Assembly: GCA_937912225.1 (NCBI GenBank)
Contig: CALDOJ010000036.1
Location: 31,191 to 95,190 of the forward strand
Length of the DNA stretch: 64,000 bases
Source of the DNA: Candidatus Woesearchaeota archaeon
Lineage (GTDB): Archaea > Nanobdellota > Nanobdellia > Woesearchaeales > GCA-2686295
Reading direction: 5' to 3'
A program made the position numbers and the translations under genes. How positions within the stretch are numbered: the stretch's first letter is position 1; every line of letters begins with the position of its first letter. The notes below the pieces were generated by a model, which had not been told where the DNA came from, made no database searches, and worked only from the letters and a program-made list of their open reading frames with translations. Shown in pieces: positions 22,851-56,765 of the stretch.

Positions 22851-24614
22851 CTATTGCCAGAAAAATAATCCAAAGAAATACAACTGCCAAAATGGTGTTA
22901 CTACTTCAAAAATTTCACTTGTTCCAGCGCTAAATCCCAAATAATTAGCAGTTACTCTAATAATATAAACTCCTCTGGGTGCATCTTTAGGAATCTTAAC
23001 TGTTTTTAATAATGAAAAAGATGTTTTCAATAACACATTAGTACTATAAGTCCATAAAGTTGTGTTACCAGTTTCATCTTGAATAGTATAAAATAATGAA
23101 ACAGGATATTCTTGATCAGATAATAAATTTTTCAAATCTGTTTTGAATTGTAAATCTTCATTTGGATGAACTTGTTTCTTAGAAGAATCTAATTCCATTA
23201 ACAAAGCTTGTACTGGAAGTTGATTTGCAGATATTAATTCAACAGTTAATGGAATAGATGCATTAAAATCTCCTGTTATTTCTATAGTTCCATTATAAGT
23301 TCCTAATTCTCCTCTTCCAAAAATAGTTGGAGTAATACTACCCCTTTCATTTGGAGCAACTAATAATTTATTCTTATCCAACTCAACTAAATTAGCAATA
23401 TCACCTGTTACTTTGAAAAATGCCTGGGTTGTTCCTTCTTTATAACTATAAACAACTATTTCTTCTTGTAAGAAGTTTCCTAATCTAAGTTTTCTATTAA
23501 TAGTATTAAGTGAAATAACTATATCTGTTCCTTCAACTCTTTTTGGTTGTTCTACTTGTGGTACGAGTGGCGCTTCACCAGGACCAACATCATCACCAGG
23601 ACCAACATCTCTACCAGGACCAATACCAGTAAAATCGTTAGGTGTTACTGCTTGAACCAATATGATATTATGAATTGTTGTTTGATTCTTTACAATTGAA
23701 ACATTGTTTGCATATACATCATAACCTGATTTTATTGCAAAAATAGTATATTGTCCTTCAGGAGCTGTAATATTATAAAAACCAAACGTGTCAGATGCAT
23801 CATTATAATTCGAAATATGTATAATTACATCAGATATTGGAACTCCTGCTTCAGTTGTTACAATTCCTGCAATATTTCCTGGATTTGGTAAATCACCTTC
23901 TCCTTCAGCACATATATCATATGGATCTGGAAAGAAATAATATCTTTGCTCTGTAGCATTTGGAATTGGTAATATCATTTGATAATTTAACTGTCTTCCG
24001 TTAAAACCATTAGTCCAATTTCCGAGTTTTGGTGCTACAAATATTAATTCTCCATTACCATCTTGAAGAACACCCAAAGTGAAATTTTCAATACTTCCAT
24101 CCCCTCCATTAAGTGTTGTGGCTGGAATAGTTATTGGAGTATTACCTATTTCAATTGTAATATTATCTTTAAAAGTATTTGTTCCTGATAACTTTGCAGT
24201 GAATGAATCATATTGGTCCATTCCTAAAAAAGTATCTAGCACCGTTAAATTAGCTGGCTGAATATTTACAAAATCTAATAATTGAGGCATAACTGTACTT
24301 GCATACACTTCATGATCAATATCTGTTTCTAAACAATCAAATAATAAATTTGCTTCTAAAGTTTCCAATCCTTCTAAATCATAAAATGCTTCATTTTGAA
24401 ATCCTGGAACTCTTACTGCATAACCATATACTCCTGACCATAAAAAAGCAGGTAAACTCATATCAATATTTACTTCATAAATTACTCCTCCTTTCCCTGA
24501 AAAAGTATTAGTTGCCCAACCAATAAACTTGCTTGCAAAAACCAATCCGAATATAGCAAGAGCTACTAATAAAACTAATAATACTGTTTGTGCAGCTTTC
24601 TCTACATGTTTCAT
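22851..24614 (-). CDS. Secreted/anchored beta-rich envelope protein (carboxypeptidase-regulatory-like + Ig-like modules)
   Basis: N-terminal TM/signal TVLLVLLVALAIFGLVFA. GIVTTEAGVPISDVIIHISN...GQYTIFAIKSGYD. GPGRDVGPGDDVGPGEAP linker. Short hydrophobic C-terminus ends at TAG. Confidence 0.55.
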   Translation of the reverse strand: MKHVEKAAQTVLLVLLVALAIFGLVFASKFIGWATNTFSGKGGVIYEVNIDMSLPAFLWSGVYGYAVRVPGFQNEAFYDLEGLETLEANLLFDCLETDIDHEVYASTVMPQLLDFVNIQPANLTVLDTFLGMDQYDSFTAKLSGTNTFKDNITIEIGNTPITIPATTLNGGDGSIENFTLGVLQDGNGELIFVAPKLGNWTNGFNGRQLNYQMILPIPNATEQRYYFFPDPYDICAEGEGDLPNPGNIAGIVTTEAGVPISDVIIHISNYNDASDTFGFYNITAPEGQYTIFAIKSGYDVYANNVSIVKNQTTIHNIILVQAVTPNDFTGIGPGRDVGPGDDVGPGEAPLVPQVEQPKRVEGTDIVISLNTINRKLRLGNFLQEEIVVYSYKEGTTQAFFKVTGDIANLVELDKNKLLVAPNERGSITPTIFGRGELGTYNGTIEITGDFNASIPLTVELISANQLPVQALLMELDSSKKQVHPNEDLQFKTDLKNLLSDQEYPVSLFYTIQDETGNTTLWTYSTNVLLKTSFSLLKTVKIPKDAPRGVYIIRVTANYLGFSAGTSEIFEVVTPFWQLYFFGLFFWQ

Positions 24615-30743: not shown

Positions 30744-30803
30744 ATAAAACAAGAAATGAAAAAGATTTAAAAAACTTCCACTTATTCTCAACACTAAACA
30801 AAT

Positions 30804-30878
30804 GGACCTGTGGCGCAGTCTGGATAGCGCGATAGCCTCCTAAGCTATAGGTCGGGGGTTCAAATCCTCCCTGGTCCG
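30804..30878 (+). tRNA. tRNA-Arg (anticodon CCU)
   Basis: Hand-folded cloverleaf. Acceptor GGACCTG/CTGGTCC with one U-U at 6:67. D stem GCGC/GCGC with a GG loop. Anticodon stem ATAGC/GCTAT, loop CTCCTAA. T arm GGGGG-TTCAAAT-CCTCC. Discriminator G, no encoded CCA. GC-rich against an AT-rich background. Confidence 0.85.
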
Positions 30879-30925
30879 TCTATGTTTTCTAAAAATTTAT
30901 ATACTATTATTTTCTATCAAGTGTA

Positions 30926-53517: not shown

Positions 53518-53583
53518 CTTTAAATAAATAATTTCACTCATCATGACAAAAAGGGTGTGAAGAAATTATACTAGGTGATAATA

Positions 53584-55053
53584 GTGGCCAAAAAAAGAAT
53601 TAAGAAGACTACCCAAAAGACTTCTAAAAAATCATTAAAAGTTCCAAAACCTAAAAAAAGTTATACATGGATGATGCCTGTTTTAGGTGTAATAATAATC
53701 GCAGCAGTTTTATTTTTCAACAGAGGACACTTTGATGAAAAAGTAATAACTGGAGAAGGAAAAATTGTTGGTTATTTGAACAACAACGCAATATATCAAT
53801 CAGAAGTTCAAGCACAGTTTGAATTACTTCCACCAGAATTAAGTGGTTTAATGGATGAGAAAACTTTGTTAAGTCAAATGATTGATGAAAAAATCTTACT
53901 ATCTAAATCTGAAGAACTTGGATTAACTGCTAGCTCAGAAGAAGTTGAAGCTGAAATTAATAATATCTTAGCTCAAAACGGATTAACTGCTGAGCAATTA
54001 GATCAAAACTTACAAGCTCAAGGAGTTTCATTAAAAATATTAAAAGAAATGTTTGGAAAACAAATCTCAATTAATAAATTATTAACTCAAGAAGCATTTT
54101 CAAGAATTAAAATTAGTGAAGCAGACCTTCAAATGTTCTACGCTGCAAATCTTGACCAGTTTCAAACTGGAGAACAAGTTAAAGCAAGACATATTCTAGT
54201 TCAATATGGTGATATGAGCGAAGAAGAAACTTTATTGGCTATGAATGCGATTGAAAAATTATTAACAGAAGATGATTCAAACTTTTGTGAATTAGTAACT
54301 GAATATTCTGAAGATCCTGGAAGTATTTCTACATGCGGAGAATACACTTTCCCTAGAGGAATGATGGTCAAAGAATTTGAAGAAGCAGCATTTACTCAGG
54401 AAGTTGGTGAAAAAACAGTTGTTAAGACTCAATTTGGATATCATTTAGTTCAAACTTTAGAAAAACTTTCTGCAGAAACAGTTCCATTAGAAGCTGCTTC
54501 AGAACAAATAAGAGAAATCTTAGTAGTTCAAGAACAACAAACTGTTTTCGCATTATATGTTGAAGAATTAAAAGCAGAAAATGAAATCGTAAACTGTTAT
54601 GCAACTCCTGAAGTAGACTTGTGTATTGAAGAAGAAACTCAAGTTGAAGACTTGGATGAAGTTGAAGAAGAAGTAGAAGAAGATGAAACTATTGTTAATG
54701 AAATCGAGTTAGAAGATGAAACTATTGAAGTTGAAACAACTATTGAAATTTCAGGAGAAACAAAAACAGATTCAACTATGGATTTATTTGCCAAATGTTT
54801 AACTGAGAAAAATACTAAATTATACGGAACTTTCTGGAGTAGTCAAAGCACAACTCAGAAAGAAATGTTTGGAGATTCACTTCAATATTTAAATTATGTC
54901 GAATGTTCAATCGAAGGTAATACTAGAGATCAAACTGATACTTGTAGAGATGCAAATATTTCCGGTTATCCTACTTGGGAGATTAATGGTAGAAAATATC
55001 CAGGACCTCAAACATTAGAAAAAATTGCTCAATTAAGTGGATGCACGCTATAA
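53584..55053 (+). CDS. Membrane-anchored SurA/PrsA-like parvulin PPIase fused to a thioredoxin-like domain lacking CxxC
   Basis: TM YTWMMPVLGVIIIAAVLFF. Parvulin VKARHILV...FGYHLVQ. Acidic linker. C-terminal LYGTFWSSQSTTQKEMFG...YVEC...GYPTWEINGRKY...LSGC. GTG 53584 follows AGGTGAT. Confidence 0.7.
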   Translation: MAKKRIKKTTQKTSKKSLKVPKPKKSYTWMMPVLGVIIIAAVLFFNRGHFDEKVITGEGKIVGYLNNNAIYQSEVQAQFELLPPELSGLMDEKTLLSQMIDEKILLSKSEELGLTASSEEVEAEINNILAQNGLTAEQLDQNLQAQGVSLKILKEMFGKQISINKLLTQEAFSRIKISEADLQMFYAANLDQFQTGEQVKARHILVQYGDMSEEETLLAMNAIEKLLTEDDSNFCELVTEYSEDPGSISTCGEYTFPRGMMVKEFEEAAFTQEVGEKTVVKTQFGYHLVQTLEKLSAETVPLEAASEQIREILVVQEQQTVFALYVEELKAENEIVNCYATPEVDLCIEEETQVEDLDEVEEEVEEDETIVNEIELEDETIEVETTIEISGETKTDSTMDLFAKCLTEKNTKLYGTFWSSQSTTQKEMFGDSLQYLNYVECSIEGNTRDQTDTCRDANISGYPTWEINGRKYPGPQTLEKIAQLSGCTL

Positions 55054-55105
55054 GCGATATGTTTATAAAGTATATAACATTCACAATAGTTACTTTATGT
55101 GAAAT

Positions 55106-55262
55106 GGTCCTTTTTTGAGGGAAGCATTATGCTTTGCTATGAGATCAAGACACTCTTACATAAACCAGCCCGACACAGAGAGTAACTTAACGGAGCACGA
55201 CATTAGTCAAGCAATGAGTTTGAGCGTTGGTGCCTCGGGCAACATAACTTTTCAAGTTATGA
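55106..55262. ncRNA. Candidate structured RNA of unknown class (GC-rich island in a 460-nt gap)
   Basis: 55161-55240 is 41/80 GC by hand count against a ~30% background. Long-range complement GCCCGA (55168-55173)/TCGGGC (55235-55240). Local hairpin GAAGC-ATTAT-GCTTT. No convincing ORF. Confidence 0.3.
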
Positions 55263-55514
55263 AAAAAAACAATAATGTTCATTAATCATAGAACAAGTTC
55301 ACTATCATTCATTTATCACACAGTACCAAAGTATTTTGAATAGTAAAAAACTTGTTCTAAGAAAAAGTATAACTTATCATAATTATTTCATTTAAAATTA
55401 GTAAATAATCAGAGATTACCAATAGAGATAACAAAGACGATAAAACAACAAAAAGTTGTACTTTTTCTAAAAAAAAGCTTAGTGAATTATAAATTTAAAA
55501 GGAGGTCATTAAAA

Positions 55515-56765
55515 ATGGCAAAAATAGCACAAGTTGCAGCAAAATATATTGTTCATGCAAACATAAATATAGAAGGAGTCGTAGATAAACCAGATGTAAT
55601 AGGCGCAATCTTCGGACAAACAGAAGGATTATTAGGAGCTGATTTAGAATTAAGAGAGCTTCAAAGATCAGGAAGAATTGGTAGAATTGAAGTAAACGTT
55701 GAAACTAAAGGCGGTAAAACAACAGGAGAAATAATAATTCCTAGTTCATTAGACAAAGCTGAAACAGCAATTGTTGGAGCAGCTTTAGAAATTATTCAAA
55801 GAATTGGTCCTTGTAACGCAAAGATCAAAGTTGAAGGCATTGAAGATATTAGAATTTCAAAGAGACAATTCGTTATCGAGAGAGCAAAAGAACTTTTAAA
55901 AAACTTAATGGATGGAGTATTACCAGATTCACAAGAATTAGCTGATGAAGTAGCTTATTCAGTAAGAATTATGGAAATACAAGAATATGGTAAAGAAAGA
56001 TTACCTGCAGGACCAGGCATTGAAGATAGCGAAGAAATAATTCTTGTTGAAGGAAGAGCAGATGTTTTAACTCTTTTAAAACACGGTTTTAAAAACGCGA
56101 TTGCTATGAACGGAACAAGTGTTCCACAAACAATTATAGAACTTTGTAAAACAAAAGAAATAACTGTTTTCGTTGATGGAGATAGAGGGGGAGATCTTAT
56201 TATAAAAGAACTTTTCAACGTAGCGGAAGTTGACTTTGTTACAAAAGCTCCTGACGGAAAAGAAGTAGAAGAATTAACACAAAAAGAAATCCATAAAGCT
56301 TTAAGAAGTAAAGTTGCAGCAGAACAAGCTAAACTAGAAACAAAAGTAGCTCCTTCTCAAACTAGAGAAAAACCTGCACCTGCAAAACCATTTGAAAGAC
56401 GAAATGAAAAATTTTCAAGACCAGTTGCAAGAACTGAAGAAAGTAAACCCGCAGCTAAAGTTGAGAAGAAAAAACTTTCTTCTAAAGAAAAAGAGTCTTT
56501 TAATGGAATGTTAGAAGACCTTATTGGAACAAGAGGCGCTTATGTTTTAGATGAGAGTCTTAATATTTTAGGAAAAGTTCCTGTTTCAGAACTTCAAAGT
56601 ACAATTAGAAGTTTAAGATCTGGAATTTATGCCGTTATCTTAGATGGAACAATTGAAAAAGACCTTGTAAGCATTGCTGAAAGAGCAAATGTTAATATTT
56701 TAGTAGCAATGGATTGCAAAGTTAAATCTACAAGAGTTCAAATATTTACAGGCGACGACTTGTAA
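55515..56765 (+). CDS. dnaG: Archaeal DnaG (Toprim) primase-like/exosome-associated protein
   Basis: AKYIVHANI..GVVDKPDVIGAIFGQTEGLLG, ILVEGRADV, VFVDGDRGGDLI. ATG 55515 follows GGAGGTCAT. Confidence 0.9.
   Translation: MAKIAQVAAKYIVHANINIEGVVDKPDVIGAIFGQTEGLLGADLELRELQRSGRIGRIEVNVETKGGKTTGEIIIPSSLDKAETAIVGAALEIIQRIGPCNAKIKVEGIEDIRISKRQFVIERAKELLKNLMDGVLPDSQELADEVAYSVRIMEIQEYGKERLPAGPGIEDSEEIILVEGRADVLTLLKHGFKNAIAMNGTSVPQTIIELCKTKEITVFVDGDRGGDLIIKELFNVAEVDFVTKAPDGKEVEELTQKEIHKALRSKVAAEQAKLETKVAPSQTREKPAPAKPFERRNEKFSRPVARTEESKPAAKVEKKKLSSKEKESFNGMLEDLIGTRGAYVLDESLNILGKVPVSELQSTIRSLRSGIYAVILDGTIEKDLVSIAERANVNILVAMDCKVKSTRVQIFTGDDL

Follow-up and report, generated by a model that had tools for sequence, protein, structure and literature searches.

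What is encoded in the long gap in front of dnaG in a Candidatus Woesearchaeota archaeon? The gap occupies positions 55054–55514 of the window, which is the whole stretch analysed here (64,000 nucleotides (nt) of contig CALDOJ010000036.1, positions 31,191 to 95,190 of the forward strand). It lies between an open reading frame (ORF) for a PpiC/SurA-like protein (53575–55053, +) and archaeal DnaG (ATG at 55515, +). An earlier note, made from the letters of this stretch, had described a GC-rich island in the gap as a candidate structured RNA. It preferred a reading as RNase P RNA, and named an H/ACA-like RNA and a novel class as alternatives. The H/ACA-like alternative is the one that the evidence supports. 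The island is probably a gene of the H/ACA class for an RNA of ~155–160 nt (~55092–55252), on the dnaG strand and with its own TATA promoter, and this RNA would guide the pseudouridylation of helix 69 in 23S ribosomal RNA (rRNA).

The composition of the island is as the note had described it: 41 of the 80 nt at 55161–55240 are G or C, while the GC content of the whole 64-kb window is 29.5%. A content of at least 40/80 is seen in just three loci of the 64 kb: this island, a tRNA (~30777–30895), and 23539–23645. The last of these is the sole other non-tRNA stretch with 50% GC over 80 nt, and is inside a long ORF (22851–24614, − strand). Folding of the single sequence, on both strands, was not significant alone (z −0.97, −0.85, and −1.68). 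GC content and folding energy by themselves prove nothing about the island, so that conservation and covariation have to carry the argument for a structured RNA.

Conservation and covariation upstream of dnaG

Eighty dnaG loci were compared, in which DnaG is 63–78% identical in amino acids. All of them are from Woesearchaeota, Nanoarchaeota, or other DPANN-labelled metagenome-assembled genomes. In blastn and nhmmer searches, ~55093–55253 of the window is kept at 70–80% DNA identity across the dnaG loci, and the remainder of the gap is not conserved. With an iterated nhmmer profile and a covariance model (R1), exactly one copy of the element was found in 76 of the 80 loci, upstream of dnaG and on its strand. 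The conservation in relatives on which the earlier note had made its proposal depend is seen in these loci. The four loci without the element have less than 230 nt of upstream sequence each. Among the genomes with the element are two complete Woesearchaeota chromosomes, CP060219.1 (L071) and OY970338.1 (L037). The window itself contains a single copy (55091–55252, +, 128 bits). The distance from the element to the ATG of dnaG ranges from ~140 to 560 nt among the loci.

The element consists of two hairpins. The 3' hairpin is seen in all 76 loci with enough upstream sequence and the 5' hairpin in ~45 of the 76; the full two-hairpin form is present in the latter loci, and the 3' hairpin stands alone in ~30. 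The loci with only the 3' hairpin are L012–L015, L018, L028, and ~25 others (e.g., L064:3715–3798 and L027:3639–3722). In L065, L075, L079, L022, and L050, the 5' hairpin is replaced by a short unrelated hairpin without a kink-turn (K-turn). The apical part of the 3' hairpin carries an insertion of 20–50 nt in L054, L005, and L002.

In each hairpin, a lower stem is followed by an internal loop, an upper stem of 9–10 layers, a K-turn-like motif, and an apical hairpin (Table). This structure was read from the alignment and tested on a structure-blind MAFFT alignment of 37 sequences. There, 90.0% of the cells pair, compared with 31–43% when the 3' partners are slid by 1–3 columns. Compensatory changes on both sides are seen in 25 of the 41 pairs, and in 500 shuffles not one of the five measures reached its observed value. 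In the alignment of 76 distinct sequences, which was fitted to the model, 91.6% of the cells are paired and 32 of the 41 pairs change on both sides. These facts indicate that the lower stems, internal loops, and upper stems reflect real base-pairing, and that the element is a structured non-coding RNA, as had been proposed.

Table. Features of the dnaG-upstream gap (positions in the window).
Feature	Position	Strand	Remark
TATA box TTTATAAA	55062–55069	+	34 nt before first stem nucleotide
5' hairpin	55096–55162	+	lower stem 55096–55101 / 55157–55162; apical hairpin 55119–55137
5' hairpin, internal-loop strands	AAAUGG 55102–55107; CACUCU 55151–55156	+	
5' hairpin, upper stem	55108–55116 / 55143–55150	+	
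5' hairpin, K-turn	GA 55117–55118; 3-nt bulge 55138–55140; GA 55141–55142	+	
Hinge AACCA	55163–55167	+	5 nt
3' hairpin (candidate helix-69 guide)	55168–55240	+	profile, covariation
3' hairpin, lower stem	GCCCGACAC 55168–55176 / GUG-(CC bulge)-UCGGGC 55230–55240	+	9 bp
3' hairpin, pocket strands	5' AGAGAGU 55177–55183; 3' GUUG 55226–55229	+	
3' hairpin, upper stem	55184–55192 / 55218–55225	+	
3' hairpin, K-turn	GA 55193–55194; bulge AAU 55213–55215; GA 55216–55217	+	
3' hairpin, apical part	55195–55212	+	
ACA box	55242–55244	+	one nucleotide past 3' lower stem, single-stranded
T-run TTTT after ACA box	55249–55252	+	possible archaeal termination signal
Imperfect hairpin, base = inverted repeat (A)GAACAAGTT / AACTTGTTC(T)	55286–55362 (55286–55311 / 55337–55362)	+	core arms 55290–55299 / 55349–55358
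Second long inverted repeat	55348–55375 / 55453–55480		core AGAAAAAGTA 55359–55368 / TACTTTTTCT 55460–55469; 28-nt arms, 82% complementary

The lower stem of the 3' hairpin is 98% paired. Its 5' side reads GCCCGN and then CAC, and its 3' side has a 2-nt bulge; the stem is continuous in the clade L012–L018/L028. The pair 55173/55235, the innermost of GCCCGA/UCGGGC, takes five pair types (UA, AU, GU, CG, and GC). The long-range pair GCCCGA (55168–55173) with UCGGGC (55235–55240), followed by A-ACA (55241–55244), had been noticed before with exact coordinates; it is the outer part of this covarying stem, followed by the ACA box. In the 5' hairpin, compensatory changes are found at all six lower-stem pairs and all eight apical pairs. 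The small hairpin GAAGC-ATTAT-GCTTT of the earlier note corresponds to the apical stem of the 5' hairpin, which covaries; it exists as described apart from its position, which is 55121–55135 and not 55122–55136. In the relatives, the hinge between the two hairpins mostly reads A-U-ACA, with an invariant CA preceded by A in 19, U in 12, and C in 5 of 37 sequences.

Some details of the pairing were settled by inspection or are ambiguous. RNAalifold alone paired the invariant pocket strands of the 3' hairpin together and missed the K-turn stems. This fold was not adopted; its CAC/GUG pairing was kept as lower stem, and the rest was taken as pocket. The loop strands of the 5' hairpin, AAUGGG and CACUCU (the latter variable in ~6 of 37 sequences), can partly pair together, and RNAalifold prefers that. 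Low in the 5' upper stem, two alternative pairings are indistinguishable because the columns are near-invariant.

A small protein-coding gene or a decayed coding remnant was also considered, and the earlier note, which saw no credible ORF in the gap, had named the remnant as an alternative. The candidate is a 56-amino-acid ORF starting with TTG (55115–55285). Stop-free stretches of 45–54 codons are present in many homologs; they are common because the island is GC-rich. Across 37 homologs, the column identity by codon position is 0.78/0.76/0.76, which is neither periodicity nor an excess of variation at the third position. Of the pairwise indel runs in this region, 174 of 175 are out of frame, and the variation in the stems is compensatory. 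A coding origin is thus extremely unlikely, and the statement that no credible ORF is present holds.

H/ACA signatures and the transcription unit

Both hairpins show the K-turn signature. Facing GA/GA dinucleotides are conserved in 34–37 of 37 sequences across a 3-nt bulge, the third bulge nucleotide is U in 34 of 37 (5' hairpin) and 36 of 37 (3' hairpin), and the C-stem covaries. A GA/GA K-turn binds L7Ae in archaeal H/ACA and C/D RNAs, and the same features including the U have been noted (PMC7075261). The K-turn expected of an archaeal H/ACA RNA is present here as a sequence signature, to which L7Ae would bind.

The box past the 3' lower stem is ACA in 63 of the 76 loci; the rest have UCA (6), CCA (4), GCA (1), UUA (1), and AUA (1). 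In the double-hairpin set (n = 37), the three positions are A in 35, C in 36, and A in 37 sequences. Degenerate NCA/CCA boxes are documented in Pyrobaculum (PMC4652768).

The spacing of the parts was compared with the rules for archaeal H/ACA RNAs, which are a GA stem of ~10 layers (8–11), a 3' guide strand of 5–6 nt, a lower stem of 7–9 bp, and an ACA 14–16 nt from the pocket-closing pair (PMC4652768, PMC7075261). From the pocket-closing pair to the distal G-A pair, there are 10 layers in both hairpins, with one bulged nucleotide each; the 3' hairpin of the window has 9 layers and an A-C mismatch. The 3' hairpin has a 3' guide strand of 4–5 nt and a 9-bp lower stem, and its ACA is at a distance of 14 nt from the pocket, or of 16 nt when the bulge of 2 nt is included. 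The 5' hairpin has 10 layers; its strand is 6 nt long, and a distance of 14 nt results from a 6-bp stem and a spacer of 2 nt. This geometry fits the productive 10/5/9 fold and the 14–16 nt rule (PMC4652768, PMC7075261).

A homologous RNA is known to be expressed. In Nanoarchaeum equitans, one H/ACA small RNA (sRNA) of 159 nt was found by RNA-seq with 10,900× coverage, between NEQ389 (tyrS) and NEQ392 (Randau 2012, PMC3491384). It has two extended hairpins with identical K-turn bulges, only ACA between them, and its own box A promoter and T-stretch (PMC3491384). The Woesearchaeota profile aligns to the sequence of this sRNA (supplement of PMC3491384) with 45.4 bits over the whole 3' hairpin, and the element therefore belongs to an H/ACA sRNA lineage already seen in DPANN. 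The blocks ACAGCCCGnCACGAGAGU, GAUGAGCU.GGG, GUUAGUG, and CGGGCAACA are common to both, and GCCCGnCACGAGAGU, GUUAGUG, and CGGGCAACA are identical in the N. equitans sRNA and the 3' hairpin of the element. The minimum free energy fold of the N. equitans sRNA contains the same bulged lower stem of 9 bp. By its sequence, the element has the features that characterize archaeal box H/ACA guide sRNAs.

The GC richness and a resemblance of short strings to RNase P had suggested a miniaturised RNase P RNA, or another catalytic or scaffold RNA of a new class. The strings are located exactly as they had been given: ACAGAGAGTAAC at 55175–55186, CGGAGCA at 55191–55197, GGGAAG at 55119–55124, and CTTTTC at 55248–55253. 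Their roles are different. The guide pocket has the 'CR-II/III-like' string ACAGAGAGUAAC as its 5' strand, and CGGAGCA holds the GA of a K-turn. The P4-like pairing of GGGAAG with CUUUUC is contradicted by covariation, since one arm belongs to the covarying apical hairpin and the other to the unconserved T-rich tail past the ACA box. A scan of the whole window with Rfam at gathering thresholds found the tRNA as its sole match and nothing in the gap. Covariance models of RNase P, signal recognition particle (SRP), C/D, H/ACA, and other families (Rfam 15) gave only chance-level matches in the gap at E ≤ 10 (E 1–4), none overlapping the core 55120–55250. The homolog is annotated as H/ACA RNA in N. 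equitans, an archaeon reported to lack RNase P (PMC3491384). An RNase P origin is accordingly next to impossible, and the element does not reveal a new kind of RNA either.

The H/ACA gene appears to be a transcription unit of its own. In 55 of 70 loci, all eight positions of TTTWWAWA are matched somewhere in the 70 nt upstream of the first stem; at random positions in the same loci, the figure is 6.6%. The distances from TATA box to stem cluster at 29–42 nt. In the loci with only the 3' hairpin, the TATA box is located directly in front of that hairpin. From the sequence of the window, the transcription start is predicted at ~55090–55094. A run of three or more T within 20 nt past the ACA box is found in 53 of 76 loci (70%, compared with 36% at random), and a run of four is weakly enriched (26% vs. 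19%). The T-run as an archaeal termination signal is suggestive only.

These weak terminators, together with the position of the element upstream of dnaG and on its strand in every locus, would also fit a structured leader that acts in cis in the dnaG mRNA, for example an L7Ae-binding K-turn regulating dnaG, instead of a free sRNA. More conserved plus-strand hairpins are present between the element and dnaG, so read-through is possible. Several facts contradict such a leader. The N. equitans homolog is not beside dnaG and is a discrete RNA, the distance to the ATG of dnaG is variable, and the invariant pocket strands and the ACA box would have no role in a leader. The chance that the element is a dnaG leader is therefore considered small.

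The first of these downstream hairpins contains the 9-bp inverted repeat GAACAAGTT (55291–55299) and AACTTGTTC (55349–55357), which had been recorded earlier with exact coordinates as a separate feature. It is real, and forms the base of a longer imperfect hairpin outside the H/ACA RNA, with 26-nt arms that are 77% complementary. In at least 38 of 76 loci, (A)GAACAAG is followed by CUUGUUC(U), and the 40–125-nt loops that separate these arms are rich in UCAU/UCAC. Because a regular expression was used to choose the arms, the counts are skewed in favour of pairing. Covariation is seen at the pair next to the arm core on its inner side (CG 12, UA 11, UG 7, and AU 3 of 38). The wobble pairs are nearly all of the type that is possible only on the plus strand: 27 are G-U/U-G and ~8 are A-C/C-A. 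For the GAACAAG/CUUGUUC hairpin, a structure in the dnaG leader or another small RNA is the probable explanation. The second long inverted repeat follows directly after the first hairpin and ends ~35 nt before the Shine-Dalgarno sequence of dnaG; an equivalent pair, GAAGTAT...ATACTTC, is present in the closest relatives. Taken together, the two downstream hairpins have the appearance of a structured leader of dnaG or of additional small RNAs.

Downstream of dnaG, a RIO kinase and a KH-domain protein are encoded. In the ORF upstream of the gap (53575–55053), the C-terminal ~85 residues (window ~54790–55053) include ...YGTFWSSQSTTQKEMFGDS...GYPTWEINGRKY.... We take this C-terminus to resemble a thioredoxin-like domain of the VKOR-fused type in which CxxC is changed to SSQS; Pfam gave rotamase and SurA_N only.

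Helix 69 as the predicted target

The pocket strands of the 3' hairpin are the most conserved single-stranded parts. GAGAG is kept in 36–37 of 37 sequences and the following U in 36; on the 3' side, GUU is invariant (37/37) and followed by A (32) or G (5). The complements of these strands, ACUCUC (of GAGAGU) and UAAC (of GUUA/GUUG), flank the loop of helix 69 in the large-subunit (LSU) rRNA. The lone variable position of the 3' guide strand, A or G, pairs with U either way. Helix 69 is among the few pseudouridylated regions of archaeal rRNA (PMC7991803).

Complementarity was scored on surrogate rRNAs: a haloarchaeal operon (PLSDB plasmid), the Rfam consensus, fragments of N. equitans, and eukaryotic LSU. 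Two N. equitans 23S fragments are printed as C/D targets in the supplement of PMC3491384, GGGAGTAACTGTA at 2003 and CTGTAACTCTCTTA at 2010. Helix 69 assembled from both reads GGGAGUAAC-UGUA-ACUCUC-UUA, and gives a full Watson–Crick match of 4 + 6 pairs to the pocket with U-G-U-A left unpaired. Eukaryotic LSUs contain GUAAC-UAUG-ACUCUC, and in a eukaryote-type LSU of 3.5 kb, helix 69 is the sole full Watson–Crick site. Any full Watson–Crick site in this LSU was reached by 2 of 720 permuted pockets and by 16 of 5000 random pockets (~0.3%). With Watson–Crick scoring, complementarity on both sides of an unpaired target U is thus present on the surrogate rRNAs. It is only with this scoring, and given that helix 69 is already known as an H/ACA target, that the complementarity is significant.

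Based on the known mechanism of the family, the element would act as follows. L7Ae would bind the K-turn of each hairpin, and Cbf5-Nop10-Gar1 would bind the lower stem and the ACA box. Helix 69 would be recognized by the internal loop of the 3' hairpin, GUU(A/G) pairing with UAAC and GAGAGU with ACUCUC. The loop U-N-U-N (UNUN) would stay unpaired, and its universally conserved uridines (E. coli 1915 and 1917) would become pseudouridine.

Several observations weigh against this interpretation. The Rfam archaeal LSU consensus (ACCCuC) and the haloarchaeal 23S rRNA (ACCCUC) give one A-C mismatch with GAGAGU. With this consensus, and with surrogate rRNAs only, ACUCUC in the helix 69 of Woesearchaeota is a prediction. 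If G-U pairs are allowed, ~25% of shuffled pockets reach the score of helix 69, which is not significant. RNAsnoop targets of stem 2 of the N. equitans sRNA are 23S U614 and 16S U796, not helix 69 (PMC3491384). The pocket is rather small, as its CAC/GUG is paired within the lower stem, and the closing pair of the 3' upper stem is an A-C mismatch in the copy of the window. The first position of the box is not A in 12 of 76 loci (UCA, CCA, GCA), and a further UUA locus is also without the C. A motif search for Cbf5 (TruB) and Nop10 found nothing in the window or in the 686 kb of DNA from the dnaG loci, and no Gar1 gene is present there either; as this DNA is a fraction of each genome, the result is uninformative.

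Some of these observations could be explained if the RNA were of H/ACA type with another target, either a different uridine such as those listed by RNAsnoop, or no modified uridine at all, the RNA serving as a chaperone of rRNA folding. G-U-tolerant scans do find equally scoring sites elsewhere, the archaeal consensus differs by one base, and the complementarity is to surrogates. The perfect match of N. equitans helix 69 with the UNUN unpaired, and the uniqueness of the helix 69 match in the surrogate LSU, are at odds with this explanation. The pocket strands are invariant across the 76 loci, which fits a universally conserved target, and there is a functional precedent in stem-loop 2 (SL2) of the Haloferax volcanii sRNA sR-h45 (PMC7075261). 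Another target is therefore regarded as unlikely, and helix 69 as the probable one.

rRNA was not found by Rfam or by motifs in the window or in the 80 dnaG loci. A metagenome scan with the helix 69 pattern gave 120 loci, and all examined flanks carry a eukaryote-type LSU signature; a scan of viral contigs gave 0 matches. One of the metagenome loci, L085 (contig Ga0114939_10016570), is an LSU of 36% GC that scores 2447 bits with the Rfam eukaryotic LSU model. Its helix 70–71 region is of bacterial- or archaeal-like length, and it possibly belongs to a divergent protist or microsporidian-like organism.

The 5' hairpin was also compared with rRNA. The best surrogate site was AGAGUG(UG)CCUGUU at position 651 of Halomicrobium 23S rRNA, with 6 + 6 pairs, which none of 300 shuffles reached. 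Its 3' arm and target U are in a variable helix of the archaeal consensus, and the site was not adopted as a target. A scan of eukaryotic LSUs for a target of the 5' hairpin found nothing, and the 5' hairpin does not match the Ψ2605 site guided by stem-loop 1 (SL1) of sR-h45. The 5' hairpin may act as a second, lineage-specific guide or have a structural role.

What this analysis adds is a Woesearchaeota family of 76 members, its constant location upstream of dnaG, its variants with one or two hairpins, and the assignment to helix 69. The family is a DPANN H/ACA guide RNA ready for covariance modelling. Rfam does not detect the element, and genome annotation therefore leaves these loci blank. 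Pseudouridylation of helix 69 is conserved in all domains of life. A testable prediction is that it would be RNA-guided in ultra-small archaea via the unusual two-uridine UNUN mode known from Haloferax. The target of the single H/ACA RNA of N. equitans is also worth re-examining. In the same published table, the helix 69 fragments of N. equitans are perfectly complementary to the pocket of stem 2, with UGUA unpaired.

It can be speculated, though we hold the whole of it for doubtful, that the element represents a DPANN-wide 'minimal' H/ACA RNA, whose helix 69 hairpin is near letter-for-letter the same in Nanoarchaeota and Woesearchaeota, and that it might be the sole RNA-guided pseudouridylation retained in these reduced genomes. 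The N. equitans target would then be corrected to the two-site UNUN, and the 5' hairpin might be a scaffold or a lineage-specific guide. The synteny with dnaG might be locked via the GAACAAG...CUUGUUC leader, which could couple both.

Comparison with known H/ACA RNAs

Judged from the sequences, the closest relative is the H/ACA sRNA of N. equitans. Both RNAs are from DPANN hosts, are ~160 nt long, and have two K-turn hairpins, a hinge of about ACA, and their own TATA (box A). They differ in the sequence and the loop strands of the 5' hairpin and in their neighbours, which are tyrS in N. equitans and dnaG here. Unlike in N. equitans, the 3' hairpin is present alone in ~30 Woesearchaeota loci. 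The target published for N. equitans was also not helix 69, unlike the one predicted for the element.

By analogy, the closest functional counterpart is SL2 of sR-h45 (Blaby 2011). This 3' stem-loop pairs with both sides of the helix 69 loop and leaves the UNUN unpaired (Majumder 2020, PMC7075261). It was shown experimentally to make both pseudouridines, 1940 and 1942 in H. volcanii, corresponding to 1915 and 1917 in E. coli, and it depends on the GA pairs and the ACA box (PMC7075261). Like sR-h45, the element is an H/ACA RNA composed of two stem-loops, with a 3' stem-loop complementary, here by prediction, to both flanks of the helix 69 loop. There is no demonstrated sequence homology between the two, and sR-h45 has a 56-nt linker with an H box. 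The 5' stem-loop of sR-h45 guides Ψ2605, while the 5' hairpin of the element is without complementarity to that site.

The architecture is also that of the Pyrococcus Pab RNAs and of Pyrobaculum sR201/202, with their 10/5/9 or 10/6/9 fold (PMC4652768). In common are a GA stem of ~10 layers with one bulged nucleotide, a 3' guide strand of 4–6 nt, a bulged lower stem of 9 bp, and an ANA box at 14–16 nt (PMC4652768). The guide sequences and targets are different, and none of those families was matched by the Rfam models. In eukaryotes, these two pseudouridines of helix 69 are guided by the H/ACA snoRNAs snR191 of yeast and U19 of human (according to PMC7075261). Unlike the element, these snoRNAs devote a separate hairpin to each of the two sites, lack a K-turn, carry H and ACA boxes, and have Nhp2 in place of L7Ae.

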